This document shows, one piece after another, positions 4,201-34,120 of a DNA stretch of 64,000 nucleotides. The stretch spans positions 63,054,001-63,118,000 of the forward strand of contig OZ287750.1 of the NCBI GenBank assembly GCA_965649765.1, written 5' to 3'. The notes beneath the pieces are model-generated. The model saw only the letters and a program-made list of their open reading frames with translations. It made no database searches and was not told the DNA's origin. Within the stretch, counting starts at the first letter, position 1. Every line of letters begins with the position of its first letter. The DNA comes from Bispira polyomma (taxonomy: Eukaryota). Position numbers and translations under genes: made by a program.

Positions 4201-7200
4201 CCCTACACATGGATGACGATGTAAAGGTGTTTTCTAGGTAGCCAGACGACCATTTCTTGCTGAGGTGAGGATTGGAGCTGGCTCATTGGTGTGTCCCTGC
4301 TTAGATCAACAGTTCTTTTGAGGTTTAGATCCTAAGAGAAATCAAGCTTAATTCGTCCTTCACTTACAAGGCAGACACCCTGCTTACCAGAGAAAGCAGA
4401 CGTTCAGACTATGAGGTTGATTCTTCTACAGTTTGGAATCCAATAACCAGAAATTTGCGAAGTTTCAAGTTATTCCAGGAGATTGTATGAAATTTCACAA
4501 GAGATTCTTTCATCTCAGGCACAGACCCTCGAATTAATCAATCTTCAAGAAATGCAGTTTTCGAAGCTGGAGATCACAGAAGTTGTCAAATTGTTGAAAG
4601 GGCCTTGTTTTTAACTTTTATTTTGACTTGTATTCTGCTTTTTTACAGTCTTCTCAACAGTGATACCTACTAAAGACTGTTACGTATTGCCGTTGGCCAT
4701 TTCAGCATTGCTTGAGAAGTAGTGACTGTTAACTGGCGTGTGGTGCTTTCCAGAGTTGTGGGTATGATGAGATGGGCTCTTCATTTTCATCATATAAACA
4801 GGGCTATTTCTGGCAGTGTCTCCATGGTTTCAATTTGTTTTTCACCATATAAGATATAAAACGTCAGAATGACGTCATCTGTGACGTCATTGGCAATGTT
4901 CGGGAGAGTACGAGACTGAAATGGAGGAACTTTTACAAATATCTCTGGAAATGGCTGTGAGTTTGACACATATTGTGTACAAGGATTTACTACCACAAAT
5001 GACAGAAAGATGGGGTAAGGCTGGCTGTTATATCTCTTCTTCCGAGTTCAATATTAATGGCAAGGTTGTGACAGAACGCGACCGGCTGGCTGTCTAAGTC
5101 CATTACGTGGAGTTATCTGAATTTTAAAGGTTTTCTAGCCGAGATAGGTATATTTGGGGCGTTAGATGTCTTTTAATATTCTTATATATTCAAAGATTCG
5201 TCGATTCATCACATTCACAGAGATTCGACCGATTCGTCACATTCACAGAGATTCGACCGATTTGTTGTGAGGAATCATCACTGTATGATTGATAATGGGT
5301 GACGCTAGAACCTATGCCTATATGGTTATTGTTTAGATTTGCAGATATTCGGCAGTTACATGTGGCGGAAGCAGTTTTATCACCTTTTACATCCATATTG
5401 GTTTGGATTCGCCCAGATTCATCCCAGATTCGCTGTGCAGAACATGTGGCTACTAATGACAGTCATCTACAATGCAGATCACTGAATATGCAGTATTTCA
5501 AGCCAATTTCTGTATTTGGTGGTGTCAGATGCTTACTTTCATATCCTTATGAACTCAGATTCACACAGAATTATCGGTTTTGCGTTGTGGAGATTTGCGT
5601 TGTATTTTGACTCGCAACTTTGGACTGTCAAATTCGTACTCTGCTTTATGGAATTTTGACTGGTTCCCTCGAATTTAAGTTGAAGAGAGAATTTAGAATT
5701 TCAATCCACCACACCTGTTACTGACTGTATTAAGATTCATCAGCCATAGTTAGTCAACTGCCTGGTTGATTGGTCTTCTTTGCTAGAACGGAGTCGAATT
5801 CAGATTTATTAGATGAATTTAATTCGACAGTTTAATGATTGGGCTGGGCGATAAACCTTCAGAAATCTTCAGCCCACTCGATGATACTTTTTTGCTGATA
5901 TCACTTCTCTGAGACATCAGGTTTAGTCTTTCCAAGAAGAAGTGGTCCTTTTGCTGATGTCATTTTTAGCGGTCAAGTTCTGTCAAGTATAACATTCAGA
6001 ATGTTTATGTTCTTGATACAACAAGACAATGCCATTTGGAAGGTAATTTTTTAGACCCTTCCAATGGTATCTAGAATCTCATTGGCGGTACCCAAGTCCC
6101 TGGACAATCAGATATCAGTGACCGACCAATTAAATTTCGTCTACAATGGTAGGACGACCATAGCTTCAATGTCTTCATAGGGAAAAATTGGCATCCAAGC
6201 GAGCACAATCTTCTCTTATTTACAGATGTACATCTAGCCGATTTTACAGTTAATGCTTGGTGATCAGGTCTAGAGACAAAACTTGTATTTCAAGTTTGTC
6301 GAATTGTAGGCAGTCTGACTAACACTCAAGGCATTTGCCAGTCTGATACTTGGAGAATAAGTTCATCATGGCCACCTACACTATAACAGTAGTAGCTGAT
6401 TTGGACAAACAACAGGGTCACATTCTTTAGAGATGTTTCTCATGTTATGGCAGATACTTGCCTATTACAATCCCAGGAACCTCTGGGTTTGAGCCTGTCT
6501 CTTACATGGTTGAATCCCAGATGTCCAGTAACATGCATTCCAAAAGCTGGTTCACAAAGTGTGAACTTACCAGTGCGGAATGATGGTTATAGCTTCGGGA
6601 TGGCTAGGCATGACCTGGTTGTGGGATCTAGTGAATCTTTCGGTCAGACCACCAGTTTTCATACCCAATGGCCATATTGGCTCAAGCAATCGTTTGGCCA
6701 CAGTTGTCTACTGTATGTTCCACATCTGTACCTCCATGTTTGGGTACTAGAATACAATTGAAACTGATTTTCAGTACTCAGATCAGTGGAGGATCGAATT
6801 AAGGCACTTCAGAAACAATCCTCTAAACGAGTGTATGAATCGAGGTGGACCTTACTGTTCTTTCAACAGAGAAATCTCAAATCTTCAACATTGGTTAGTT
6901 CATCATCATCTTTTACAGATCACTTGGGATTGAAAGGACTAGAAGTCTTGACAAGTCTTGAACTGAATAGACTTCTTGCTAGTTGTTGTAGACAAACCTG
7001 TAACACATAGAGGTTTTCCTATTTGGGATTTGTCATTGGTATTTTTAGCTTTGACCAAGCATCCATATCAACCTAGGAAAGAGGCTTCTTTGAAATTGGT
7101 TTTCTTCGAAACTATATTTCTTATGGCCTCAGAGAAGAGAAAAGGTGAACTTCGTGCATGGACCTTTTCTTCTCCACATTGGAATGAGGTTATTGTATCT

Positions 7201-16200: not shown

Positions 16201-18111
16201 AAGGTCGCATGTGACTGACCTTGACATAATGTAAAAGAAAGGTTTGGGGTTATTTATTTTACATTGAGTCACAAAGATCATACCTTCTTTTATATTCTCA
16301 TTATCTTCACCAACATTTTATTTTTAAATATTTAATCAAATAATATTTTTTATTAATGTGAAAGTAATCTATCCTGACAACAAAATGATTAATTTAGGGA
16401 TATTCACTGTTTTTATAAAATTTTACAATGCAAAATTAATATACCATCTATAATAACTGATCATTAATTAATTTGAACAACACACAGCTTTATAGAAATT
16501 TGGAAAGGAATCTCTATTGACTAGACAATAACAGAGGTATTCAGGTTTGGAAAATGTATTGTACATTGACGTCACACAGATCATACCTTCTTTTATATTC
16601 TTATTATCTGTTGACCAACATTTTAAATTTAAAGGTCTAATTAATTATTGGTTTTCAATAATGTAATCTATTTTGACAACAAAATAATTAATTTAAGGAT
16701 ATTTACCATTTTGCCAAGCATTTATAAAATTTCACAATGCAATATTAATATAGCATCCATAATAACTGATTATTAATCAATTTGAACAACACACAGCTTC
16801 ATAGAGGTTTGGAAAGGAATCTCCATTGACTAGGCAATAACAGAGGAATTCTTAAGGAGAAAGTAACATATGGACATTATAGAATTATTGACAACTGACA
16901 TCAAGAGCCAATCCCCAGCCATATATATTGGGCTATACCTTACTTTTCACATAAGCTAATAGACAAATATAAATATAACCGGGCAAACAATTTACATTCT
17001 CTGATATTAAAGTTAACTATTAAAATATTTGTATGAATAGTTTCCACCACTGAGCATTCAAAAGGAAATCATTTTCATCTTTTATATCTGGCCTGCATAG
17101 TTTTTAAATTCTATCATTTGACTGAACCAGGTAGTATCTGCCCAATACAATTTTAAGAGGTAGGGTACCAATTATTATTTGACAACATAAGGTTGTTGAT
17201 ACTATAGATCAGTTATCAGTCTTATTTATTTTTTAACATAGGGCTTTATTTATATAAAGATAACACAAACATGGGCCATTTAAAAATTTAAATTAAACTT
17301 TTTTTAACTCTGTAAGTATATAGTTTGGGTAATTGCCTTAACAATATATTGTGTAATAATTATGAACACCCTCTGCACTCTCAGCTGCTTATTTTTAATA
17401 AAATTTGCAATTATATATAAGTTTGTTCAGATTTGTAAAATGTAGTTTCATCTTGCATTAGGGTGATAAAGTATTATCATTTGCAATTATATAAAAGCTT
17501 GTTCACATTTGTAAAATGTAGTTTCATATTGCATTAGGGTGGTAAAGCATTATCATTTTATCACCCTGGTGATTACTGTGCAACCCGCCCTAGAGAAGGG
17601 CATAATTGTCCGAGGTTTAGTACATACCAAAATAGGTTTGGTCTAGAGTATTATTTTGTATCCGGATACTGAAGACTACCACTGATTTTAAAACATAATC
17701 CACATATTGTTGCACATCAATCAATTATTATAGTAAATTCATCCACACAGATTCAACCATTATTATCACAGGTAACAACTTTAGTGACACAAGTAAAGTG
17801 AAAAGCGCCTATATCTTGCAATGGAAAAGCTTAGTTCTTTTAAATAACATTAAAGATACAAACTTGCTTCCACAAGTAATAAAAGTTATTTTACATTCTG
17901 TATTACCTACCCTTCCGTTGTCATTAAAATCCACTCCAAATGGGTTTCTGGCTCCTCCTCCCAGTACATTCTTGTGACCCACTCCTCTCCAGATAGCGGC
18001 AGGTCGACAGGGATGTGGTACTAACTCACCATTAGGAATATAACCACGGAACTGTGGGAAGGCATTGGAGCCACACAGAAATACGCAGAACAAGAACTGC
18101 AAGCCTTGCAT
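1260..18111 (-). CDS. Secreted temptin-domain + DBH/MOXD-like copper type II ascorbate-dependent monooxygenase, copy A (coding exons 1-10; last exons probably lie left of the window)
   Basis: Hand-spliced GT-AG exons with matching phases: 17911-18111, 15743-15875, 15181-15282, 14009-14191, 12988-13151, 9756-9835, 3168-3331, 1641-1737, 1449-1540, 1260-1357. Signal peptide MQGLQFLFCVFLCGSNA. Temptin-like motifs IPNG..VPHPC...WRGVGH..GGGARNPFG and LCRKDSDGDGKTNGEELGDPECVW. Monooxygenase motifs TTYMCM, VAHHIM (CuH), EMHWTN (CuH), YPHMHYAG (CuM), EEMC..FAYYP (CuM Met). No stop or frameshift across about 438 codons. Confidence 0.92.
2540..2915. repeat. 45-bp minisatellite, about 8 units, intron 7 of copy A
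   Basis: Unit gaagttaggagaggtggttatattaataatgaatacacagagact. It explains the repetitive ORFs (EVRRGGYINNEYTET)n. Confidence 0.95.
3344..8758 (+). mobile_element. DIRS1-type tyrosine-recombinase retrotransposon (ORFs degraded, termini intact)
   Basis: Inverted terminal repeats at about 3344-3540 and 8549-8710. The internal complementary region at about 8415-8512 is complementary to both the left end and the right extension. Starts and ends in TTT. RNase H remnant at about 6290-6480; YR remnants SSKRVYESRW, PIWDLSLVFLALTKHPYQP..KRKGELRAW and KAHD.RAMTASLAF at 6790-7600. Absent at the orthologous site of copy B (56362-56400). Confidence 0.92.
8925..9650. repeat. About 29-33-bp minisatellite with palindromic core, intron 6 of copy A
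   Basis: Consensus gtacagtatcactgtatatagagagattcct, about 23 variant units. Confidence 0.95.
10160..12790 (-). mobile_element. 5'-truncated degenerate L1/Tx1-like LINE (RT + 3' end), intron 5 of copy A
   Basis: Minus strand gives VDFEKAFDSVEW, GIRQECSLSALLFLLVAEILA and CQMADDT, with many stops. A-rich tail at about 10160-10215. Boundaries approximate. Confidence 0.85.
14290..14830 (-). mobile_element. L1/Tx1-like RT fragment, intron 3 (shared with copy B 63480-64000)
   Basis: Minus strand FEKAFDKLNW and RGVRQGCAVSAFLFIL motifs. Homologous copy at the same intron position in copy B. Confidence 0.8.
16260..16850. repeat. About 300-bp direct tandem duplication in intron 1 of copy A
   Basis: The block tacattga.tcaca.agatcataccttctttt...caataacagagg starts at about 16260 and again at about 16562. 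Confidence 0.85.
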
Positions 18112-19389
18112 TATCTACACAGAAGATAATTTTAGAATATACTTAAAACAGACCCGTGATTTTACATGATATATGGATGATAAATTAGTTAATAACTTCA
18201 CAAATCATACATGACCTCAAATTACTGAATAATGATAAATAATACTGATAATAGTGGTTATAGACTTAATGTCCTAGTAATGAAAATATTTTATCACAAA
18301 ATATTACCATGTTTCTCTTTTTCATAAATAAGGTGCCATGTGTATGTATATATATACACTGTTTCATTTGATATCATAGGAATATACAAGCTTATATATG
18401 CTTGCATTTACACATTCAAGAAGTTGAGACAATGAAAACATCTGGCGAACTAATGACCAAGGAATAATCATTTGTTAAAATCTTTGAGGCACAACTTGAC
18501 ATATCATTTGTTAGTTCTGAAATTAAATATGAACAGTTTTCCATTTGCACTATAAGTAGTTAATTGTATTTTAATTCTCTGACCAGTCTTGTTGTGTGTT
18601 CTGTGCTCTCTATTATCAAAACCATCAGCTAGAAAACTCCAATTACAGAACTACATAAGACATGTTTATAATTTTTAGGTAGATAGATATTAAATATTTA
18701 CTATTTGACAGTTGTAAATATTCTTTTGATATAGGATCAGTGCCCTTGAGTGACCTTGGCTATGATGATAACACATAATAAATAGACACAGTTATAATTT
18801 TTGTTTTGTGATGATATTTATTTAGTTCTCTGGGTTATTTACAATAATAACAATGTTACAAAAATCTATACATGGTCTAACATGTTACAGTACGAGAATA
18901 CAAAAACATACAAACAATGTATCAGAATAAACTTTACTTCAAAATAAGTAACTCCAGCAGTGATACGATGACAAAGACATTTGTACAGGATATTGTTAAT
19001 TTTTTTTAATCACATAATCTTTGGGTCTTGGTAATGTAAAAAAAAACAGGTGGTTGAATTATGGTAGAATAAGGGCTTTAGTTACATTGATTTTCCCAAG
19101 AGGAGTGAGATATCGCTTCTTCTAAGGAGATATTTGGTTACTTAGACTTTCAATGATAGGGTTATAGTTAAGATCACTTACACTTTACAGGTCAACAGAA
19201 AAATTCATACCTTGAATTCACTTATCCCCATGCTAAGGGTTTTGTTTTAAATTTACAGTTTGAATGCTTCTTTTTACCTATCCAGATAATCTGAATCTTG
19301 TCAGTTTACTTGTAAACCATAGATCTATCATAGATCACTAGTGTATTCAGTGCCACCAGGAGGGCACTTTCCTGAAGGGAACCATCTAT

Positions 19390-20690
19390 GCCAAGGTTTT
19401 TTTTCCATTTTTCATTGATTTTAGGGCTTCATTAAGTTTATTTTCCCTTAATGGTCCTTTTAGTTTGAGAGATTCTTTGTCGCTCAGTTTTACTGAGCTT
19501 AGACCTTTTAAGTTGTTTTCTACATCTGACCAAGAGTATGATTCTCTCCCGAAATAGGTTTTTATAGAAATCTCTACTTTTATTCAGGAATTCCTTTTGG
19601 TCTATTATAATCTGCTCATTCTCTTTTTTTAATCGTCAAACAGTTTTTCAATATATTTTTGATGTTCGAGGAACATGGTTTTTTCCCTTCTTTTAGCTAA
19701 CTGAGCCTTAATCTTATTTTTATCCCATTCAATTTAATATTCCGTAATTCTTTCAGATCATTTTTTTTTGTATTAACAAAACCATTTCAGAGTTTTTTTT
19801 CATTCTGCTCAAGCGATTCAATTTCGAACATTAGCATTTTTCCATTATTGCATCAGTCTTTCTGAGAAAGGATACAATTTTTCTGGTTTCGCCCCTTATC
19901 ATTAGTAGTAATGTTTTTGGAAAAACATCATTGGGTATTGTGAATTAGAGTTCCTCCTTTGGAATATTCTTAAGGTTATTAAAATTTTAGACAGGAAGTG
20001 CATATTTTGCAGCTTTGTTATCAATTAGTAGATTAATCATATTTAAATATTATTTATTTTTCAAGAGAGAGCAATTAAATTTACGAGTGCCTTTCCCCCT
20101 TTTAAATTAATTCAGCAACAATTTTAGTTCTATAATTAAATGGTCTGATCTATATCCTAGTTTGACATTGCAGTCTGTTACATAGTCCATTAAAGCATTT
20201 GATCCGATAAAATAGTCCAGGCGAGCCTGCTTAACTGGGATTCTTTGATGCCACGTTTTTCCCTTTAAATCCGGATAGAAATATCTAAATATGTTTTTTC
20301 AGTTTTCTTCGCTAAGCAATAAGCACAATAGGTTGCGTGAGCAAGGGTTGTTTATGTATTTATAGTTGTGTAAGTTCTGGATCCAACATTAGGTACATAT
20401 CACCACATATTAGGGTGTAGTCTTGGTCATTATTTTGTACAATCTTGCTTACATATTCAAAGAAAACTGGTGGTTCTGTACTTGGTGCATTTACATTTAT
20501 AAGTTTAATTTTCATGTCAATTACCCTAATGTCCATCCAGTTTTCTGAGGTGTCACAATGTATATTGCTGATACTATGTTCAAATGTGTTACTTGTTAGT
20601 ATAGCTACACCTCTTGAATTGGTTTTACTTCCATTATTATAGCATTGGTCTTTCCAAATGCTTCTTTTTGATTTTTCAGCTTCTATTTAA
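19390..20690 (-). mobile_element. L1/Tx1-like LINE fragment (APE endonuclease region)
   Basis: Minus strand SNSRGVAILVSNTFEH, INVNAPSTEPPVFF, KQARLDYFI and GYRSDH, all L1-type endonuclease motifs; multiple stops. Confidence 0.8.
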
Positions 20691-20699
20691 AAGGATCTA

Positions 20700-20852
20700 A
20701 ACAAATTGCAATGCATACAGAATTCATTGGGGCGTCTGCTCGGCTTTCACATGCCTCACCAATTCTAAAATCACTCCACTGGTTTCCTGTTAGGTATCAA
20801 TAGTGTACAAGTTTTTTGATTCGGGTTTGCCTGAATACTTTGAACCGCACTT
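20700..20852 (+). mobile_element. Short L2-like fragment, cut off at 20852
   Basis: Similar to 460-643 (caattctaaaatcactccactgg...tcgggtttgcctgaatact). Similarity stops abruptly before AGTAGT at 20853. Confidence 0.75.
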
Positions 20853-21159
20853 AGTAGTTTAATATGTCCATCCATTTGTTATGATCCCTTATACCTTGGC
20901 AGTTCGCTGACAACACTAATAGCTTATTTCCTGTCATTTGTACAATGTAGTACCCACTCTAAGCAGCACTTAATCACTTGATCATATTTTAAAATTTTTA
21001 TATTTACTTTACCGTATATCTTTTTTTAAATGTATATGCAAACTGATATTTGTACTATAAGAGGTAATGATCTGGACTCCTTTTTTAGTCTTGCACATTT
21101 GGACACTACTATACGCATGCGCAGAGCACACAGAGTCACAAGCCCATATCGCGGCCTGC

Positions 21160-21275
21160 CCCTTTAACCCTAACTCTACCTTAACCCTAACTATAAACCC
21201 CTAAAGCCTAAACATACCTTAACCCTAAACCCCCCTAACCCTAAAGCCCTACCCCCTCTATCACTAACCCTTAAA
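21160..21275. repeat. Degenerate telomere-like (CCCTAA)n tract
   Basis: About 8 imperfect taaccctaa/cccctaa units in about 115 bp. Confidence 0.75.
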
Positions 21276-21878
21276 ACAAGTTCGGGTTATCCAGGAGAAT
21301 AAATCAATACCTCTACAACTACATTGATAATAAAGAAAACAACAAAGTACTTCAAACATTTTTCTTTGTTAAAATCATATGTACACAAGTCGAAAGTAGA
21401 AATGAATAAATTCATGATATATACATGAACAGATAATTTAGTAATACCTCAATAAATTAACCTAAATAAAGGCATTATACACAATACATAACTAAACAAA
21501 TTACCCAATATTTTAAACATTATTTTACTACAATACACTAAAGAAAAGGCTAATAATATATATATATAAAGTGATCAAATTTAAATAATACATAGATAAT
21601 ATTTTAATGTAACACATACAATAACATATGCCGTAATTAATATCTAAAACCAAATAAAAAAATGTAAAAAAAAAAATTGTCTTATGTCTCATGCAGAATT
21701 TCTATATAATGTTACTGCTTCAATTGAACTAATCATATCCAGGAAATGGCAAACACCACATTGATGTCTTTTATGTTCAGCTATTGCATCATCATAATAC
21801 TCCCATGAATCTAACTCTCTGCGACACCAGACACATCCTACTTTATCTTTGAAACCGGTATACTAAAACCCAAATTTT

Positions 21879-24346
21879 TTTTTCTGATTTTTAATTTTTT
21901 TTTAAACTGTATTATTTTACAATTTATCACATCAAGCAACATTTACATTATATTAGGCAACTTTTACAATATATTTGAATCACAACAATTCTGTATGCAT
22001 TAATGATATAAATACAGAAACATAACTTTTATTTAATTTTTGGTTTGTATCCTTTAATATAATTTCACAAACTTTGCACATTGTTTCACTGTACTCATTA
22101 TTTTTTTATTTTAAAAGATATACTTTACTTTCCATTCTCTTTCTTGGATGCCTGTAGAAAAGGTCTCTGAAATTAGATGTTCATTTTTGTCTTGATAAAT
22201 ATGTATATTGCTTTGCAAAAAGATTTATTAAATTAAATATCTGTAACTCTGTAACTATTTTTTTAATTAAATTCCAAAAGTACTTCAAGAACCGTAAAAT
22301 CATACTTTACATTCAGGACAACCGTCCAAATCTCTTTTATTACATTCCATATTTTATCAACTTCACAACAAAAAAATGTTCTATGGTGTCTATTATACTG
22401 CAATACGGCCAAAGAGGGCTGTCTATAATCTTTAATTTAGTCAAGTTATATTTACAGTTAACATATCTATAAATTATACTGTATTGTAAACTTTGTAAGC
22501 TTACATCAGAAGTAACTGTAGATGTCAGATTGTACACCACAGCCCAATCTATAGTCTCTAAAAAGGATAATATTCTACTCATTTGTTTTCCGCTGTTGGG
22601 ATAGTAACTTTAAAAGTTATAGATATATATATATTTTTTGTTGGTAACTTTAGATATGTTTAATTTTAAATGTGCAACATCAAATCTGGCTGGATTGTAT
22701 GAACATGATTTAGTTGTTTCAGTGTGGTTTTTCATGCCAAAGGTATTGCAGACAGTAGTGAGTTATGGGACAAGATTGATAAGTTTGATAACTTACAGTT
22801 ATATTCCCTTTCTATTTCCTCCTTCGTTTTGAATCTTGAATTGACTATTAATTTGTATAATTTTGAAATACCAGTTTTTACCAGGATATTAAAATTTGGT
22901 CAATAGGTTTTTTCCTAATCAATATATGTTTATTATATGCCAATTTTTCATTTAATATGTCTGTAGTGCTGTAGTTTCTTTTAGTGTTTACTGAAAAGAA
23001 ATCATACCAAGACTGCAGCCCCTGACCATAGAATTTTGATTGACAATGCAGCATCATAGAAGGAAACATCTTATGTTTAAGGATTTCACTATCAGTGATG
23101 CCTGCACAAGTATGATTTTGCTATTTGCTTTTGTATGGATTGGTACTATTGGTGAGAAATAGCCTCTTTACCCATATCGATTTAATGGATGATATCATAT
23201 TCTAAAAATCAACCATTTTTAAGCATCCTTGACATTTTTTATGAATAACAACTTGTCTTTTTACTTTCGGTCTTTTCTCTTTGCCGCACAAAAATTAAAA
23301 AAAAAAATTGTCAACTTTCTCAACAAAAGTATCTGGTACAAAAACCACATTACATACATTTATTATTAGGCATAACACCAATGTTTGAAGAATCATAACC
23401 TTTCCATATATAGTTAATTTTCTGCAGGACCAGATGTTCATAAGCTTTTTCATGTTGTCCAATTTATTTTCTAAATTTAATGCTACCATTTCACTTTCAT
23501 CTAAACTAAACCATGTACCTAGTGTTTTAAAACTACCAGATTTCCATTTAATTCCTAAATTACCGTCCTGAAACAAGGAAAAAATTACTGGGATAAATTT
23601 AGTCTTATCTTTATTTGTTTTTAACCCTGAACAGGCATAAAAGCTATCTAATAATGTTAAAACATTTTTTAGATAGTTTATATCTTCTAAATACAAGGTG
23701 GTGTCGTCTGCTAAGAAGGGAAAGGGTTATGTGTAAATTTGGCATTCATACCTTTATATAGTATATTCTGTAGTTCAGCTTTCCATATATCAGATTTGAA
23801 GTTAGTAATTTTCTTGTCAAGATGTTTCTGCACCTCAGGGTCTGGTTCACAGGATATGGTGAGAACACTAGCCTGGTCTTCAAAAAGGGATGCTATACTG
23901 ATCATCAAATAATTGTAGGGCTCACCATCCACTTTGAAGTCACATTTATAGTGGTTGGACAAAGGGCTACGCTTGCTGAAGAATGCAGTAATGCCTCCTC
24001 TGGTAGGGGTGCTTAGAATCTTGGGACAATACAGGGCTGGTAGGTCATTTATTCCATATAGTTTTCTCTCAAACAGTATTTTGTCTTCCTTCAATCTGAT
24101 ACCGCTGTCTAACTTTCCAGTTTCCTCGGAGATTTTTGCTTAGCCTTAAACACAGTAAATATATCTTTGTGTTTAGCACTAGCTTCTGCAGTAAGATCAT
24201 CAGCTATGGACCTACCATTCACCTGATTCAGGTTATTTCATACTTTGAAGAGCTGTTCTTTATCTTTTAGGTTGCAGAATCTGGCAATGACTACACATGT
24301 TTTATCCATACCTCTATTGCCTAAATAATGCACCTTTTCAAAAGTC
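21879..24346 (-). mobile_element. Internally deleted L1/Tx1-like LINE: ORF1(RRM-CTD)-NADAR fusion + RT C-half + 3' UTR + poly(A)
   Basis: TSD aaaccc(a/g)atttt pattern: aaacccaaatttt at 21866-21878 and aaacccagatttt at 24347-24359. Poly(A) at about 21879-21903 on the minus strand. RT motifs LADDTTLYL, CSGLKTNKDKT, FKTLGTWF, WSCRKLTIYGKVMIL and CSIIDTIEHFF. Confidence 0.88.
23711..24346 (-). pseudogene. LINE ORF1p C-terminal part fused to a NADAR (YbiA-like) domain
   Basis: TFEKVHYLG..VVIARFCNLKDKEQL..IADDLTAE..TVFKAK (L1 ORF1p RRM/CTD-like, one stop, one frameshift), then LKEDKILFERKLYGINDLP..ITAFFSKRSPLSNHYKCDFKVDGEPY..ASLFED..PDPEVQKHLDKKITNFKSDIW..ILYKGMNAKFTHNP, which follows the NADAR motif order. 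Confidence 0.82.
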
Positions 24347-25799
24347 AAACCCAGATTTTGCTAATTGTGCTGGTTCTAATCCCTCGAGGCCTGGCCATGA
24401 CCAAAAACTTGCTAATCTATTGTCATACTTCTTCATATCTTCCCAGTCATTGCATTGGTCACCACTCTTCATAACCATCTGGATGTAGTCACAGTATGGA
24501 TTGTTCTTCCGATGTATAGTCAGGGGCTCATCAAAATAATTCCATGACTGCATCATTAGTTTACACCATGCATAGATACATCTGTCTCCTGTTCTGGTGT
24601 ACTTGAACCCAGCTCTGCACACGTCATAAGGGCAAACACTTTTGGACCACGTCTGATAACTTTCCAACATGTTAGAATAGCTTTGAAAATCTAGCCAACC
24701 TATATACATATCACGATTAACTTCCTAACTTTTCAGATAAACAACTTTTTCTAATTGTCTAAAGCTCTAATTTCTTCCTTTTTGCCTCTGTCAGTGCCTT
24801 GACTAAACATTTGGGAGCTGCTACTGCATCACCTTCAATCGTCCATCTACAGTTTGTTTTTTCGGAGATGCCATTTACCACAAATCCAGCCACCTTGCAG
24901 GAGTTATTACTGAAGAGACCGCCGTCATTACAAGCCTCCTTCACATTCTGGTCATTTTTATAACTGGTTCTGCTATTGTCCTAGTTTTGTCTCTGTATGT
25001 AGACTTCAAATCTTAGTGAGGTCTCATAAGGCAAATATCACTTTTTATAAGTATAATCTGATGTTATAAATAAACATTACAACATATTTTACTATGTCAT
25101 TTCTAAATTTGACATTATTACATAATAGGTATGACATATGTATATATTTCCATGAGGCATCATGACACAAAATTGTCAAGGTCTGCTATATTACATCTGA
25201 GTCCTTGTCTAGAATCATCTATTACATCATAACATTAAAATTTCATGCTCTCCTCATCCAAAAATATCTATTGCATCACTTAATGACATCATTTTCAAAA
25301 TATGCACCTCAATATACTAATGCTCCTTTATGTCTCATTAAAAATGCAGGTAGATCCCAACAGTTGTACCACCATAGTAATTTCTTATTAGGATAACTTA
25401 TGCACATTAATGTGTAGGTAAGATATCCAGATAATAATTTCTATAATCAAAATAATCACTACAGATATTTTGCAATGATATTGGCTCAAGAAAGCTTTTA
25501 TAGCGAAACAATTCATTAATTATATAAATAGATTTTTAATGTGTGTACATGTAATTCTCTCTCCATGCTCTAAATTTAAACCATATTCATTAAAATCTTT
25601 TACACAATACCAGCTAACTCTGTTGTGATCAAAACAAAGACAAGGGAAATCAGGCCATTCACACTGTACTGGCGTAAAATTCATTTTTGTTCTTATCTTT
25701 ATAAAAGTGAAATCTTGTATGAAAAGGTATTTTAAATATGGCAACTTATACTAGTGAATGACATCATTCTTGATTACATAGCTACTATAGCCAATGTTG

Positions 25800-26507
25800 A
25801 TAATTACATCATTACTAAATATAGAAATCTTCAAATTTTTTTGTAAATATTTTGATTTGTTTGTCATTTTGAGTTATCTAAAATATGTCTAAAACTCTTT
25901 GCCCTTGTTCGGTTATATAAAAATATAAACAATATTCTCCACAAAGTGAACTTAAATTGCTTTGAAGACGGAATGTATTTTTATAATATTCTTTTTGATG
26001 TCTAAATAAGAAACTTTCGAAACTGGTCTGAGCTTTTTTTGCAGAATTAAAATATTCTGCCTTATCTTTAGTGCAAACACAGCTACCCAATGTTCCTCCT
26101 TATGAGGATATGGTTGGATGTTGAGAATTACAACCTTGAGTAAATACAAGAATTTGTATGGCAGTTCATTAGCTGTTTGGTTATATAAAAAATATAAACA
26201 ATATTCCCCACAAAGTGAACTTAAATTGCTTTGAAGACGGAATGTATTTTTATAATATTCTTTTTTATGTCCAAATAAGAAACTTTCGAAAATGGTCTGA
26301 GCTTTTTTTTGGCAGAATCAAAATATTCTGCCTTATTTTTAGTAGTACCCAATGTTCCCCCTTATGAGGATATGGTTGGATATTAGATACAACCTTGGGT
26401 AAATACAAGAATTTGTATGGCAGTTCATTAGCTGCAAACACACCCCCATAACATTTTTTAATAGAAGGATCTGTAAGTATAATCTTCAGTATTTCACTTG
26501 TAGTCAT
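25800..26507 (-). pseudogene. Adenain-type cysteine protease (Maverick/Polinton PRO), frameshifted and internally duplicated
   Basis: MTTSEILKII..YGGVFAANELP..NIQPYPHKGEHWV..AEYFNS..RLQSNLSSLCGEYCLYF carries the His, oxyanion Gln and catalytic Cys motifs. About 260-bp tandem duplication at 25911-26175 and 26178-26434. Confidence 0.85.
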
Positions 26508-28299
26508 GATTCTATTACGTGGGATTCATCTGTGGTGAAAATAGGAGGGAATTTTGCATATAATATAGCATAACGCTCTCACTCAATTCTTTGGCTAAGT
26601 CTACTGTTATTCTAGTATAACCCTTTTTTAACTTGCCTTTAAATATTTCTAAAAGATCAGCCAGAAATGGCTATTTTTATTGCAAGGTGTCTTTTCTTCA
26701 AAATATGAAATTAGGGTTACTATGTTAAATTTTTAACTCTAACTTCATATTTAAAAGTAATGTACACCTTACTCCATATATTAACCCCAATCGCCAATTT
26801 GCGAGTCCGTTGATGTATTTATTCCATAATTTTGCAATCTATCAAATATTGTTTTAGGAGTTTTGAAAAAAAAAAACACCTGGAAAAGTATATTTTGTCC
26901 TATTGTAGCATACAGATACATTCCTCTTCACTTAAACGGTTCTTTTCTTCAAAATATGAAATTAGGGTTAGTATGATAAATTTTTAACTCTAACTTTATA
27001 TTTAAAAGTAATATACATCTTACTCCATATATTAACTCCACAGTGTCCTATCAAGAGAAGTTGAACTATGATGTAACACAGGTAAGTAAAAAGGCAGAGT
27101 TGGGGATATTAGTTTAATGTCTCTATGTTATATCTAATATTTATTTACACACTGAGTTTAAGGCCACCTTAACACGAGGAAAGTTTATAAAGTTTGAGAG
27201 TTAAGGTGACCTTAGCCTGAAAGTTTCCAGGTTAAGGTGGAGAAGAATTTTGAGTTTAGGGTAACCCTAGCTTGAGGTTAGGGTTACCTAAAATTAAGTT
27301 TAAGTTAATGAATTTAAGGTTAGCCCTAACATAAAGTTAGGGTTAGATTTGAATTTATGAGGTAACTTTATGTTTGCTTTAAGGTTGCCAAAGGAAATAT
27401 ATTAACTGTATATAAAAGATTTAAGATTAAATAAGGCGTTAAGGTAGCCCAAAAGATTTATATTTAACATTTAAGTATATATTAAAAATGTAAAAGTATG
27501 TAAATAAAGCCCCAAAAAAGGGTAAAATCGAAGTTAAGACCATGGTGACTAGCTAAAATACTAAAAGCGCTCACAATAAAGTCCAAGAGTCGCTAACAAA
27601 TTACATCTTACACCCCTAGCACATACAATAACCATGATCTGAGGAAAACATGCATACAGACATAAAAATGTAAATCGAGTTGCTGTTGCTTTTCAGGAGT
27701 GAGTCCGTGCTGTGCAGAGAAGAGAGTTGCTTGACCACAACGGCTGAGCCATGTGTCCCATGCTCCTGAAACAACATACTCAAGGTTGAACACTTGTTAA
27801 TGGTTACATGACATGCAATTGCATGATATTTATAATATATACTTGACACTACACTAGCTACACTAAGGTTGCGCATTACACACATTAGATGAATTGACAA
27901 CATTAATTTATATTACATTATACTTCTACTATTTAAATACACCAGCATCTGGTGATAGCGCGTCAAGCCTGCAAATGCCTGCTATCCACATACATAAATT
28001 CATATACTATTATTATAACGCTTCACGCTCTTACGTGGCAAGAGAGAACAACATTGTGAAAGTACATTTAATGTAATACACACATAAGGGGATTCAACCC
28101 TGAAAACAATAAAGTAAAGTACAATTGTTGAAAACTGAGGCGTCGCAATCTCAGTAGCAATCAGGTACCTAAAAGAAAGAGTGGCCCCATAGAGGCCCTG
28201 GTGTTATCCAGATTAGAAGGGAGACAGGTCACCTGGGGACCCAGAAGACGCCCAAGGACCAGGAACTATGAAAGCCAGCAGTAATGCATAACTCAGGAC

Positions 28300-29616
28300 C
28301 CATATTAAGAATAATAATACAGATGTTTATGTAATGTTCTTAGATGCTAGTAAGGCATTCGACAGAGTTGAATATGTAAAGCTCTTTTCTATTCTGTTTA
28401 ATAGGGGGTTATGCCCACTTGTCTGCAGATTACTAGCTGCAATGTACACCAATCAATCTCTCTGTATTAAATGGGGTTCTTGTGTTTCGCAATCACTTAA
28501 GGTTCATAATGGTGTAAAACAGGGTGGGATTTTGTCACCAATATTATTCACCATCTATGTTGATGAGATGTTCTTAAAACTTAAGAGGTGTGGCTTTGGT
28601 TGTTACATTGGAAATGTTATTCTAGGAGCTATTGGATATGCTGATGATGCCGTTATTGTTTCTCCTACTATGTACTCTCTGAAACATATGTTGGAAATAT
28701 GTGATACATTTGGTGATGAATTTAATGTTCTTTTCAATCCCAGTAAATATCAACTACTCCATTTTTCAAATGGGAACACTATAGACAATCTAAGGCATGA
28801 TAATAAAGTTATACCATGTCAGCCCAGTGCAGTACATTTAGGTCACATTATTGGCCCTGACTGTAATAATAGAGCAGTGGAAGAAGCCATTAACAATTTC
28901 ATGGTATCCTTCAATGGCATAATATCAACTTTTTCTTTTGCTCGTGTAAATGTGAAGTACAAACTATTTAAAAGTTTTTGCATGTGCCTTTATGGCTGTG
29001 AGTTTTGGGATATAAGTTCTTCCATGATGTCTAAATTTTATGTCACCTGGCGTAAATGTATACGTAAACTGTTTAATCTCTCATATAGAACACATAGAAA
29101 ATATATACCCCTAATATGTGATGATATTCCTGTTGATATACAATTGTTTAAATGTTTTAATAAATTTGTAGCATGTGCAATAGATAGTAGAAATATATGT
29201 GTACAGATGGCCATTAAGTTGGCAGTCAACGGTAGTTGCTCAAACGTTTGCAGTAATATTAATGCAGTTTCCCAACTACTGCATTCTAACCGAAAAACAG
29301 TGCTATCACATATATCAGTCTTCAGTAGTGTTTTACAAAATTATGTGTCAAATCTATATAGTGAGCCAGAAAAGATGGCAGTTGCAAATATTAAAGATCT
29401 ACTTTACATCAGGGATATGAAAACATCGCAGTTCACTCGAGAGGAGTTGAACAATTTATTAGAATTTTTCTGTACATATTAAAAGTGTTGTCAATTTTGT
29501 TGTAAAATTTCTGTTTGTGGCTCTTTTTTTTTGTTTCTTTTTTTTTCTTTTGGTTTTGTTAACATTCTGTAATATATGTATTTGTATACTTAGAGTATGA
29601 ATAAATAAATAAATAA
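28300..29616 (+). mobile_element. 5'-truncated non-LTR retrotransposon (Proto2/RTEX-like RT), 382-aa open frame 28334-29482
   Basis: FLDASKAFDRVEY, NGVKQGGILSPILFTIYVD and GYADD motifs; (AATA)n tail at about 29600-29616. Clade assignment is tentative. Confidence 0.88.
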
Positions 29617-31760
29617 CCCCCAGCCCCCACCCCCCCTGCGCCAAGGTGTAAAGGGAGACTTAAGGGATTCTAGGGACAGCAGCAAGCGCTCCAACGGACG
29701 TACGAATAGCTGAAAACTGCAGAGGAAGTAGTAGGGGAAGAGGGTGGGAAAAAGTGAAATATTTAAGATGGCGTTGTTGCCGGTTTGACTTCAATGTAAA
29801 AAGTGATAGATCTGCAGAAACGGCGGGAAAGCTGGGGTCATTAGGTACAAGCTAGCGAATTATAAGAGAGGTTAAAGGTTATGACCCCAGGGAGGTAAGT
29901 TAAGGAAAATACTGGTAGCACTGAAATAACCATCCTCTGCGGGAGATTTATATTTAACATTTAAGTATATATTAATAATGTAAAAGTATGTAAATAAAGC
30001 CCCAAAGCCCAATTAGGAGGTAGTAGGTTTAGAAAGTAGGGCCTTGAAGGAGAGGGCCACCTGCTCAGAGGCATTGTGGTCCTGAACGATATACTTCCAA
30101 ACACAGTCCGACGTCCAGGTGCCATGATTATGTATGTCTTGAATTGGTACGTTACTATTAAAAGCCAGGGTGGCACCTGAACGACGGAAGGTTTGGAAGG
30201 ATATAAGAGATTGTTGGAGACCCAATCGGGTGAGTATTAAGGTAAGGTTTTTTCTGACCTGGGTATCAATCATGGGATACCATTTCTGATCTTTTTGGAT
30301 TTGAAAGAGAGGGGAGTTTTTATGCCCCGGTGTAATTGCTATTAAGATCCTAGTGGCTGCCATTGGACACAAAGGGGACCCATTCTGGGTAGGAATTTTT
30401 AATACTTTGATAACATTTTTTGACTGAAGGGTTTTAGACCATTTAATGATAATGTGGAGGCCAGGAGAAGCGAATAGCACGTCTCCCCTGGCCAGCTGAA
30501 CTAGAGGGGAGAACTGTGCAGCAGAGTGGGGTACTAGGTTTGATATTCTGAGGAATGAGAAAAAGGGTATGAGATACAGGGCTTTAAAGATTTGTCCCAA
30601 ATACATGCTGTCACATAGTTGGATTATTTGCTGAAGAAGTGGTATATCAATGATTGCTTTAATTTTTGCCTTGAAGGGGCTATTACGGACTAAGACCTTC
30701 TGGTAATAATTAATCCTGGGATCTGAAAAAACAGTGACATCAAGGCCATATAAGGCCATTTTGGCTTTAACTGCAGAGAGATAATTTACTATAGAAGGAG
30801 TGGAAACTTGGTTGACTACTAGAACTTCTAGAAATGAAAGAATAATTGAGGGGTTAATAAGCTGAGGTCTGACCTGAGCAAAAGTGCAGAAGGCGGCTAA
30901 GAAAATCCTAAACATGTTTGTATAAGCCCTCTCAGTGGCTGGTCTGAAAGCCTGGTGAATTCTGTTTGCAGCTTGTGTGGCTATCTTTCTTAACTGAGAG
31001 GGAACATCTGTAAATTAAATAGACCAGTCTATTTCTAGCATGTGAGGCTTAATTTGTGCCCACTTTGGATTAGGTAGTATTTCTGATAATTTTTTATCAC
31101 TATCTACTGTAAGGTGCCATCTCGACAAGAGGTCAGCCACTGTATTCAGTCTGCCCAATATGTGTATAGTTTTGAGACTAATGTCAACCGAGGCCACTTC
31201 CATAAACATATTACGGGCAATTGCTGCCAGGGTCAAGTCTTTGGTCTTTCCTGAATTTAAAATGGTGACCACTGCTGCATTGTCACACTGCAGTATTAAA
31301 CATTTGCCCCGCCAGGTTGATTTCCAGAGTCTGATGGCCACCAAAATGTTAAGCATCTCTAAATCTACTATTGTCATATTAAGGTAACCCAAGGGAATCT
31401 GAAATTCATACACGTCGTTGTTGCAACGACCCCCTGTAGGCAGGCATCCAATTGTATACAATCAGTGTTTGGATTATGTTCAAAAAAGGCCTTACCATTG
31501 AATTTAGGCAAAAATTGCTTAAACCAGTTTACATCCTGGTGGAACTCGGGGGTAAGCTTGACTTTTTGATTTGCTCCTGCAGACCTCAGCACGTCAAGCA
31601 TGCGATTGAGAAATACCCGTGAAACCCTCACACATTTGGAAATGTATAGCAGTTTGCCTAGAAGGGATTGGAGTTATCGCTTTGTGCAGGTATTTTTATG
31701 ATGCCATTCTTTAACTAGAACATTGATTTCGGTAAGTTTTTCGTCAGGTAAAGAGACTCA
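29617..31760 (-). mobile_element. Ngaro-like tyrosine-recombinase retrotransposon (RT C-terminus, RNase H, YR)
   Basis: RT end LQSLLGKLLYISKCV..RVFLNRML; RNase H LDACLQG, IVDLEMLNILVAIRLW, CDNAAVV, NTVADLLSR; YR ORF at 30013-30915. A 60-bp direct repeat at 29946-30005 and 27457-27516 suggests split direct repeats. Confidence 0.88.
30013..30915 (-). CDS. Tyrosine recombinase of the Ngaro-like element
   Basis: 300-aa ORF with SIVNYLSAVK, FFSFLRISNL (Arg), IKWSKT (Lys), SFQTFRRSGAT (His appears as Gln) and HGTWTSDCVWKY (Trp, Tyr). Confidence 0.85.
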   Translation of the reverse strand: MFRIFLAAFCTFAQVRPQLINPSIILSFLEVLVVNQVSTPSIVNYLSAVKAKMALYGLDVTVFSDPRINYYQKVLVRNSPFKAKIKAIIDIPLLQQIIQLCDSMYLGQIFKALYLIPFFSFLRISNLVPHSAAQFSPLVQLARGDVLFASPGLHIIIKWSKTLQSKNVIKVLKIPTQNGSPLCPMAATRILIAITPGHKNSPLFQIQKDQKWYPMIDTQVRKNLTLILTRLGLQQSLISFQTFRRSGATLAFNSNVPIQDIHNHGTWTSDCVWKYIVQDHNASEQVALSFKALLSKPTTS

Positions 31761-32649
31761 ACCATACCATATCGTATTAACAGTTTTAGCTTGGATACTT
31801 TGTGAGACTACATGTGTGTCAGTACATTGTGTTTTGTCAGGGATATCACTGGCCCAGCTACTAACAGTTGGACCGTTGTCCTCTAGAGGTGTGAACTTGT
31901 TAGAAGTGGTAATCACCCATTGTGGATTATTGACATAGCGAGTGTTGTTTTTTAGGTTTGTGACACTAGTGGTTTGTGGATGAGGCCAGGGTTTTTAAAT
32001 CTGAGTTGTTGACACAGCTGTTGGCTTTAGTGTGCAACTTTGCACCGAGGTCATGACATGCAATACCTGGAACTTTGTTTTTATACACATACGACCCCAC
32101 CTGGGGCGACTGACTATCACTGTACGTTTTAACAACTTTTATTCTTTTAAGGATTTTTATTCTTAACAGCACAACTGGAGAGACACGAGCTTTTGAGTAC
32201 ATACTTTTGAGTATGACTTGTTTTGACATTTAGCCCAATCTGTCCTCCAGCAAGCACTGCCATACAAAACCTGACTACTGTTATATACCACTACAATATT
32301 TTCTATCACTACATTATTACAAAATAATGTTGTGACACCACATTAACAATGCATACTGCTTGGGTTTTATTATATAATAAACAACTGGTTCAAGCTATGT
32401 ATGCTTGGTATAAGTAACTTGTACATTTGGCAAGGTGACTATAAATAACTTTCCAACTTTGTATGTATAAGAGTACATTTTTGCTTAATCATTAAAAACT
32501 AAAGAGAACAGACGTCGGTAATAACTTATCAGCCTTAAATTATGATACAGCAGCTTTGTAATTTATTCATAGAGAACGGGAATAGGCAGCCATTATAGGC
32601 TCATTTAATAACATTCCACACACTCAATGTCATGCATCTCTGTTGGTGA

Positions 32650-34120
32650 CAAAACCGACAGATATTAGTAAGATTTAGTTTTGCCCTCTTCTCTGGTGAT
32701 CAGAGTTTGGTTAATTATAACACCCCAAGAGAAATTTATGGAAGCAACCATATGGAGCTTACGTTGTCAACATTAGATTGTGTGATTCGGGATATTCTAA
32801 ACTGTAAAGGACAATCTAAACTTTAGAAAATAGATATGTCAAGAGCGTTCCGGAATATACGAGTGGAATTGGGCATCAGTCATAATGGCAAGTACGTGTC
32901 TGGAACTATATTGATGATTTCTTTGTATGCAGTGACTAAAGGATGCACACAAGCAAGTTTATAGAATTTTGTGTGACGATTCCACAAAGATTTGTTAAAC
33001 TTAATGACATTATAACATGCCTGATAATTGAAATATAGGCCCACACTCAGACACTAAGTATCACTGCACAGAAATTAGCCGAAGTAATACAATTCTAAAG
33101 GGTTTGTTGGGGAGCATTTTGCTTCCAAGGGAAACCTACAATCACTCGCCATGTTGCGGGTCGCTGAATCCTCATACAAACATTTAACAAATACTTTTCA
33201 GCGTGAATTGGTTTATGTGCCTGGCTGTGCATTAGAATGGTTTCACACAATGAATGTCATATTTTTAAAGACACCTCTTTGCACAGCCTAAGGGCACATC
33301 ATTTAGGGGAAGCATACGTTGAACTTATTTCTAAGATTTTAAAGAAATGCAGATCCATAGTGCACTTCAAAAACATGTCCTCTGATCAATCAAATGTTGG
33401 TTAAACAACATTTTAAAGACACCTCTTTGCACAGCCTAAGGGCACATCATTTCGGGGAAGCATACGTTGAACTTATGCCTAAGATTCTAAGGGAATGCAG
33501 ATCCATAGTGCACTTCGAAAACATGTCCTCTGATCAATCAAATGCTGGTCAAACAACATAGTTGGTAACAATGTCATTATTCACGCAGATAACATTTCAG
33601 TTGTCCAAAACCTCAACACTTACAAGACAAACCACAGTTTCTTGGGGCTTTGCTTACGGAACATATTCATGGAAATTCATGATGCCCACATGAAAGCATA
33701 CCATATGGCAAAAAGAATCGTAGATGCATTGTTAAGGAATTATGAAGATCAACATCTTTATAATAAACATCTACAAGACATTAACAACCTTAGAGGTGTG
33801 AGGTTAAAACACAATTCAATATCGATTGACCATCTGTTGTAGGTGCTGCAGGAGCAAGACTGTTAGCAATTGGAGTAATGGCACGATTACGGGGAGCTTT
33901 TGAGAAAGCAAACACACAATTTACAAAACAACTTTATTTATATATAAACTTTTGTACAAGCCATGGTATTGAGGACATCACCCGTGTATCTTCTTTGTTA
34001 GCATTTATGGAGTTATTGACCAAAACAGGCCTTTCTGCTGCCACTGTGGCCAACTACGTTTCTGCACTGAAACAAGCCATAAGGGACAGGCGCATCAAAA
34101 CTGACCAGGTTGACTAGCCC
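32650..34120 (+). mobile_element. Older, heavily degraded Ngaro/DIRS-group element (RT, RNase H, YR N-terminus)
   Basis: KIDMSRAFRNIRV, NYIDDFF, IIHADNISVV..LGLCLRNIFM and SLLAFMELLTKTGLSAATVANYVSALK. Internal duplication of about 150 bp (33262-33560). Confidence 0.78.

Follow-up and report, generated by a model that had tools for sequence, protein, structure and literature searches.

Among the systems most closely comparable with the locus described here, adintoviruses are reported to carry homologues of Bcl2 and of inhibitor of apoptosis (IAP) proteins (Starrett et al. 2021, PMC8502044), and in the text layer of Fig. S2 of that paper two IAP labels come just before the names 'Mytilus mussel' and 'Pinctada oyster', in the manner of the other labels and maps of the figure, so that their assignment depends on its layout. 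Vertebrate Mavericks, for which element ends and gene order have been defined, were degraded fossils at 96% of the loci surveyed, and in vertebrate Polintons the protease is described as directed towards the element centre (Barreat and Katzourakis 2021, PMC8097293). The present analysis concerns a 64-kb stretch of the Bispira polyomma genome (assembly GCA_965649765.1, contig OZ287750.1, forward-strand positions 63,054,001 to 63,118,000), referred to below as the window; all coordinates are positions in this window. As judged from its sequence, this DNA includes a decayed fragment of a Polinton (Maverick/adintovirus) that probably carried an intronless IAP gene with two BIR domains as accessory cargo. 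Since IAP cargo is reported in PMC8502044, the combination of Polinton and IAP is already of a known kind, and a view of this cargo as unexpected, where the initial annotation of this DNA noted that IAPs are not core Polinton genes, is too strong.

In common with adintoviruses as described in PMC8502044, the locus has an adenain-type protease after the major capsid gene and an accessory IAP; unlike them, it is a fossil fragment in which no integrase, ATPase, minor capsid gene or element ends were found, and its IAP has two tandem BIRs. Similarly, it shares with the vertebrate Mavericks of PMC8097293 the order of capsid and protease, the intronless genes and the mostly degraded state, but (AGT)2 or (AG)3 ends with a 6-bp target-site duplication (TSD) were not found, and its possible polymerase scrap lies on the strand of the capsid module. 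Read along the minus strand from 27040 to 20853, the order is a repeat piece, the polymerase scrap, a further repeat piece, the capsid tail, the protease, a frame of 76 codons, the IAP leader, BIR1 with half of BIR2, a 2.5-kb long interspersed nuclear element (LINE), the rest of BIR2 and, after an AT-rich stretch, a motif cluster and a different LINE. The features from the polymerase scrap to the motif cluster are as follows.

26811-26931, minus strand: possible scrap of a protein-primed DNA polymerase B, about 40 codons with one frameshift, weak.
26507-26628, minus strand: C-terminal tail of a Polinton major capsid protein, frameshifted, adjoining the start of the protease (profile).
25800-26507, minus strand: Polinton cysteine protease, adenain-like, frameshifted, with an internal tandem duplication of 265 bp (profile matches, Atlas neighbours).
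25520-25750, minus strand: open frame of 76 codons between protease and IAP.
24762-24980, minus strand: probable N-terminal leader of the IAP, in a frame other than that of BIR1 and bearing a GGLF motif at 24923-24912.
24347-24724, minus strand: IAP BIR1 (about 24667-24479) and the first half of BIR2, no intron (Pfam BIR, E 4.9e-12; alignment).
21879-24346, minus strand: internally deleted LINE in BIR2, with the end of open reading frame (ORF) 1 bearing a NADAR domain, a reverse transcriptase piece and an A-rich tail.
21689-21865, minus strand: second half of BIR2 and the IAP stop, with one premature stop and no RING after it (Pfam BIR positions 25-69, E 1.5e-11).
21100-21290, no strand assigned: candidate element end, consisting of a TAACCCTAA-type motif cluster (21160-21290) and a GC-rich box; the only such cluster in the window by the test applied.

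The protease was detected with a profile of 65 Polinton-type proteases, taken from loci found by a degenerate-pattern scan (3 viral and 108 metagenome). Two matches were noted on the minus strand, at 26510-26328 (E 1e-6) and 26081-25863 (E 7e-12), and no other match below E 0.08 was present in the window. These findings agree with the adenain protease proposed in the initial annotation, which had overlooked both the frameshifts and the tandem duplication of the middle of the gene (25906-26175 against 26174-26434, 273 nucleotides, 91% identical); each of the two copies is frameshifted. The broken pieces were not detected by Pfam, and two of the reference proteases matched Pfam Peptidase_C5 weakly. 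The Atlas neighbours of the N-terminal piece were Preplasmiviricota clusters at 0.94-0.95, in one of which Peptidase_C5 is present on 12% of the members. As a separate observation, a viral-collection contig with a Polinton-type protease (L003, positions 1724-2047 and 5878-6681) has, downstream of that gene, a CARD domain that stands alone (Pfam E 1e-12), as well as a YqaJ-like exonuclease, representing other apoptosis-related cargo.

The claim of a frameshifted capsid C-terminus directly upstream of the protease was likewise borne out. With a profile of 45 capsid C-termini, the pieces 26628-26566 and 26602-26507 ranked first in a six-frame search of the window and, joined with an X at the break, scored 13.1 bits, a score reached by 0 of 5000 shuffles; the 8 best of 127,600 pieces of the same shape from the window all fell at this site. 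Position and a shared motif served to identify the reference tails, and the capsid protein of L018 carries no Pfam family name. The order of capsid followed by protease on one strand was present in all of the 52 capsid-tail matches at protease loci (within 300 nucleotides in 50 of them). The remnant in the window comprises only the last 40 or so codons of the gene.

The IAP gene follows the protease on this strand after 0.8 kb, and the intronless, co-oriented two-BIR gene of the initial annotation was confirmed, with the addition that BIR2 is split by a LINE. The two BIRs scored 46.6 and 45.1 bits against a Pfam cut-off of 22.9. From the alignment, BIR2 keeps its four zinc ligands and BIR1 has lost one of four, likely through decay. 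The reading frame stops 14 codons past BIR2, and by comparison with the baculovirus-type BIR-BIR-RING arrangement the C-terminal RING is missing: none was found in any minus-strand frame down to 21000, nor was there any other Pfam match in the three frames of 21000-21900. The inserted LINE, of about 2.5 kb, includes a NADAR domain at 23714-24139 (Pfam E 1.7e-10) and a reverse transcriptase piece at 23298-23726 (RVT_1, E 1.6e-4), and is bounded by a 13-bp TSD with 1 mismatch (24347-24359 and 21866-21878). The position of this LINE and its duplication between the two halves of BIR2 indicates that the IAP gene was whole before the insertion. Contig joins and depths were taken from contigs of three public runs from one study, representing at most two samples, from which the window itself may derive; no joint across the LINE was present among the joints listed (15 of 102). 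A NADAR/YbiA domain at the end of ORF1 has already been noted for oyster Tx1 LINEs (PMC12477816).

Marks of retroposition were not seen around the IAP. Thus, the 650 nucleotides after the stop contain no A-run of at least 7, and flanking repeats did not exceed chance (10 nucleotides, a length reached by 231 of 300 shuffles), so that neither the poly(A) tail nor the TSD of a processed pseudogene, the alternative named in the initial annotation, was found after or around the gene. In run X1, depth of long identical contigs over the IAP was 20-27 as compared with 13-20 for unique flanks, where depth is not a measure of copy number; since these values are close to each other, no close sibling of the IAP is evident in the sequenced samples.

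The affinities of the IAP were examined among 2019 BIR proteins obtained by a search of 1.84 billion representatives, 150 of which were among the matches listed. The best single-domain relatives among these were short proteins that end right after one BIR, and further members were added by a profile search. The proteins of this family are of 117-207 residues, have a single BIR and no RING, and are unnamed. All 9 of the best blastp matches of BIR1 among 420 BIR domains were family members, and the best score of BIR1 was 72 bits within the family, as compared with 58 bits among other proteins and 41 bits among the 38 viral domains. The extraction of 420 domains missed 2 of 14 family proteins, both of which were added to a tree of 52 rows. 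In a quick tree of 158 rows both window BIRs fell inside the family branch (Shimodaira-Hasegawa-like approximate likelihood ratio test, SH-aLRT, 85), and in the more careful tree of 52 rows they formed one branch with the 14 family proteins (ultrafast bootstrap 95, SH-aLRT 74), where the rows were the chosen family, 21 near or neighbouring domains and 15 viral domains, the alignment had 73 columns and the bootstrap had not fully settled. BIRs from baculovirus-type genomes and from a 207-kb genome, probably that of Ostreid herpesvirus 1 as judged from its size and gene lengths, were on other branches. Thus, a BIR phylogeny of the kind proposed in the initial annotation placed the window BIRs in the unnamed RING-less family and not with the sampled baculovirus- or oyster-herpesvirus-type IAPs. 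The IAPs of baculoviruses, nudiviruses and malacoherpesviruses, which are viral and counter host cell death, resemble the window gene in being intronless BIR proteins but differ from it in their much lower similarity and their place in the BIR tree. Most of them carry a RING.

Additional traits of the family were also noted. Of the family proteins, 8 of 16 have a GG[LF]F motif within their first 100 residues, as compared with 0 of 143 other BIR proteins, and the motif is present in the leader of the window gene; this leader is not a further BIR by Pfam and, aligned one by one, exceeded chance against only 3 of the 16 family leaders (2, 9 and 12 of 1000 shuffles). It is likely that an internal duplication of the single-BIR family form gave rise to the form with two BIRs. 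In one cluster (P0094), a single-BIR protein of 161 residues has 25 near-identical members on contigs of up to 4.7 Mb, and one sequence occurs on 23 contigs; this spread fits a gene that rides a mobile element, and the cluster likely represents a young IAP-carrying element in some animal genome.

Evidence for a third Polinton gene was less clear. The possible polymerase scrap at 26811-26931 aligns to residues 403-435 of a 1408-residue family B polymerase-like protein in L029, and the initial annotation had compared it with the N-terminal region of pPolB, but its score of 6.7 bits (4 of 5000 shuffles as high) did not exceed the window background, in which unrelated frames reached 7.9 bits, and the matched part of the profile rests on 2 polymerases. 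No viral contig matched the polymerase motif pattern. As a reading of the sequence, a polymerase scrap is plausible here. The scrap is bracketed by pieces of a frequent palindromic repeat (26684-26810 and 26941-27040) with very high contig depth, which may have moved or isolated it. Profiles of 17 ORF clusters from related loci gave nothing convincing near the remnant for integrase, packaging ATPase or minor capsid protein, a lack that is compatible with a Polinton origin since it is expected for a fragment. The features in or beside the remnant that do not belong to a Polinton are as follows.

26941-27040, no strand assigned: palindromic repeat piece resembling a miniature inverted-repeat transposable element, repeating 26690-26789 directly at 94% identity; contigs here have loose ends and very high depth.
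26690-26810, no strand assigned: second palindromic repeat piece, self-inverted at 26684-26770, with loose ends at 26734 and 26807-26810.
20853-20937, minus strand: start of ORF2 (endonuclease) of a Tx1/L1-type LINE, containing AGTAGT; flank.
20689-20852, plus strand: scrap of an L2/CR1-type LINE inserted in the endonuclease gene, matching 430-644 and 53613-53826, with loose ends at 20689; flank.

The last two features account for the AGTAGT at 20853, which had been read as an element terminus cutting an L2 fragment. This hexamer is the antisense of two codons in the start of the LINE ORF2 (20937-20853), and, counted together with its complement, it is present 42 times in the window. The frame from 20937 presumably represents a LINE endonuclease start, which it resembles in its motif. 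The 27 codons of this start gave no PDB match by themselves; the endonuclease gene resumes to the left of the L2-type scrap, where it matches residues 58-148 of human L1 endonuclease (E 9e-5). Sibling copies of the LINE cross 20853, since 20656 is joined to 20861 in contigs of 2 of the 3 runs, and 20419 to 21022 in contigs of all 3. The supposed terminus is thus part of a LINE, and the Polinton remnant ends at or to the right of about 21050.

A different end may be represented by the motif cluster at 21160-21290, although no terminal hexamer in the right orientation and no TSD were found at 21100-21290. In L027 and L068 the protease is followed by similar clusters after 400-560 nucleotides, but at least 4 such motifs within 3 kb downstream of the protease were present at only 10 of 105 loci, in the same orientation at 6. 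The cluster region 21164-21289 gave a marginal alignment with 27213-27346 that comprised short motifs only (1 of 300 shuffles as high). As a candidate for the other terminal repeat, the stretch 27150-27550 was rejected; it is a very frequent repeat and shares 63 bp with a DIRS-like end at 29944-30006.

Taken together, position, orientation, the lack of retrocopy marks, family traits and precedent link the IAP to the Polinton, and carriage by the element is the best reading because retrocopy marks are lacking and the family looks borne by mobile elements. In the corresponding proposal of the initial annotation, the virus-like protease, the capsid tail, the lack of retrocopy marks and the kinship with the short BIR family stand in favor, while the terminus turned out to be LINE, the polymerase is weak and no intact relative with both genes was found. 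Several further results weigh against carriage. No locus with both a family BIR and Polinton genes was found in viral, metagenome, prokaryote or phage collections, and BIRs were present at 0 of 111 Polinton-type protease loci, of which only 18 of 105 extend for 3 kb or more beyond the protease and none is closely related. The support for the family branch is below the level that the tool stars, on 73 columns, and no end or TSD of the Polinton is demonstrated at the locus. In addition, the possible polymerase scrap lies upstream on the same strand, which, given the orientation of the protease in vertebrate elements, points to a rearranged or atypical layout, and the anti-apoptotic action of the family protein is a prediction from analogy. 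In other searches, none of the 28 viral loci with a BIR pattern gave a profile match to a Polinton protease, capsid tail, integrase or polymerase, and word-based protein searches with the BIR frame and the protease piece gave no match, these being too diverged.

Among the other explanations, the one that fares best, though unlikely, is that the IAP came from another mobile element, a virus fragment or a non-autonomous offshoot of a Polinton and came to stand beside the protease remnant in a repeat-rich region. The region consists of nested insertions, no ends common to the IAP and the remnant were found, no relative links the two genes, and BIR domains are reported to ride on long terminal repeat retrotransposons as well (PMC6431247); the two genes are nevertheless on the same strand, 0.8 kb apart, with no recognisable foreign-element genes between them and with contig depth near single-copy across both. 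Somewhat less probable again is that a host IAP mRNA was retroposed beside or within the Polinton remnant as a processed copy, a reading that would suit the intronless gene and agree with the retroposition proposed for intronless mollusc IAPs in PMC7831173 and PMC8917759. Old poly(A) tails and TSDs decay, but besides the lack of both, the nearest relatives are short, unnamed single-BIR proteins as opposed to multi-domain IAPs of host type, and the gene stops right after BIR2 just as family members stop after their BIR. An origin from a large DNA virus (malacoherpesvirus- or baculovirus/nudivirus-like) independent of any Polinton is very improbable even though such viruses carry intronless BIR genes, since their sampled BIRs scored at best 41 bits and lie on other branches, fold-search matches of the BIR model were 13-31% identical (a rough range only, from a poor predicted model with a predicted local distance difference test score, pLDDT, of 47.5) and the surrounding sequence showed no gene of such a virus.

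If the IAP was carried by the Polinton, the protein made by an active element would fold two zinc-binding BIRs. Type II BIRs bind IAP antagonists or processed caspases by the N-terminal motifs of these partners, and by analogy the BIRs of this protein would do likewise; in the family, the groove that receives the motifs presumably retains its tryptophan and acidic residues. Because it lacks a RING, the protein would be a binding sink or decoy and not a ubiquitin ligase, and it would delay host cell death while the element replicates. Tandem duplication, frameshifts, the LINE in BIR2 and the repeat pieces are later damage, and the present copy is dead.

Other features of the window lie outside the remnant or between its genes. 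The frame of 76 codons between protease and IAP was without match in Pfam, NCBIfam or Atlas and is not a further BIR by Pfam; a second copy of 25266-25712, which overlaps this frame and the adjacent spacer, occurs elsewhere, about 90% identical, in all three runs. An open LINE reverse transcriptase frame of 396 codons (Pfam E 1e-21) lies at 28292-29482 on the plus strand, and a DIRS/Ngaro-like element with tyrosine recombinase and RNase H at 30013-32229 on the minus strand, the 63-bp repeat of its end being common to 29944-30006 and 27454-27516. A second recombinase piece is at 33534-34117, and a Temptin_C exon (Pfam E 4e-13) at 17809-18114 on the minus strand, the one feature of the sequence that hinted at a molluscan host.

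The short BIR family may also bear on the IAP repertoires of molluscs. In the hard clam, 42 of the 49 IAPs of clade 1 are reported to be intronless, single-BIR, dispersed and mostly silent and are read as retrocopies, and DNA transposons are reported to be enriched near IAP genes (Song et al. 2021, PMC7831173). Among 28 of the 49 clade 1 rows of Table S11 of that paper, 22 are single-exon genes of 348-456 nucleotides, 11 of them of exactly 408 nucleotides on six chromosomes. As far as gene tables (and not sequences) allow a comparison, the clade 1 IAPs match the BIR family of the window in size and layout, the window gene differing in its two BIRs. Mavericks are reported to make up 1.7-1.9% of the hard clam genome (PMC8905726). 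Retroposition or DNA transposons are invoked for IAPs by Witkop et al. 2022 (PMC8917759) and by a 2026 survey (PMC13159474); the words Polinton and Maverick are absent from the main text of these two papers and of PMC7831173, and the family motifs are absent from the readable supplement of PMC13159474. A literature search gave no paper that links intronless mollusc IAPs to Polintons, although supplements may bear on this point.

The suggestion of the initial annotation, that such elements contribute to mollusc IAP repertoires, is a reasonable idea. The wider proposal, that the short BIR proteins without RING form an IAP lineage specific to the Polintons of marine invertebrates and that the cargo of Polintons, as opposed to retrocopies of host genes, accounts for the dispersed, silent, intronless single-BIR IAPs by which mollusc IAP counts are inflated (e.g., the 42 of hard clam clade 1), is possible but at present doubtful. 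In itself the locus is a dead fossil, and one of a known kind; its value is as a pointer that ties an unnamed short BIR family to Polintons. A published puzzle, namely whether the bursts of intronless IAPs in bivalves are retrocopies or genes of virus-like elements, is thereby made testable from flanking DNA; if they are genes of virus-like elements, the IAP counts cited for bivalve stress adaptation would need correction. If the proposal is true, part of the mollusc IAP expansion would consist of viral counter-defence genes, and the presence of anti-apoptotic cargo would strengthen the case for Polintons behaving as viruses.

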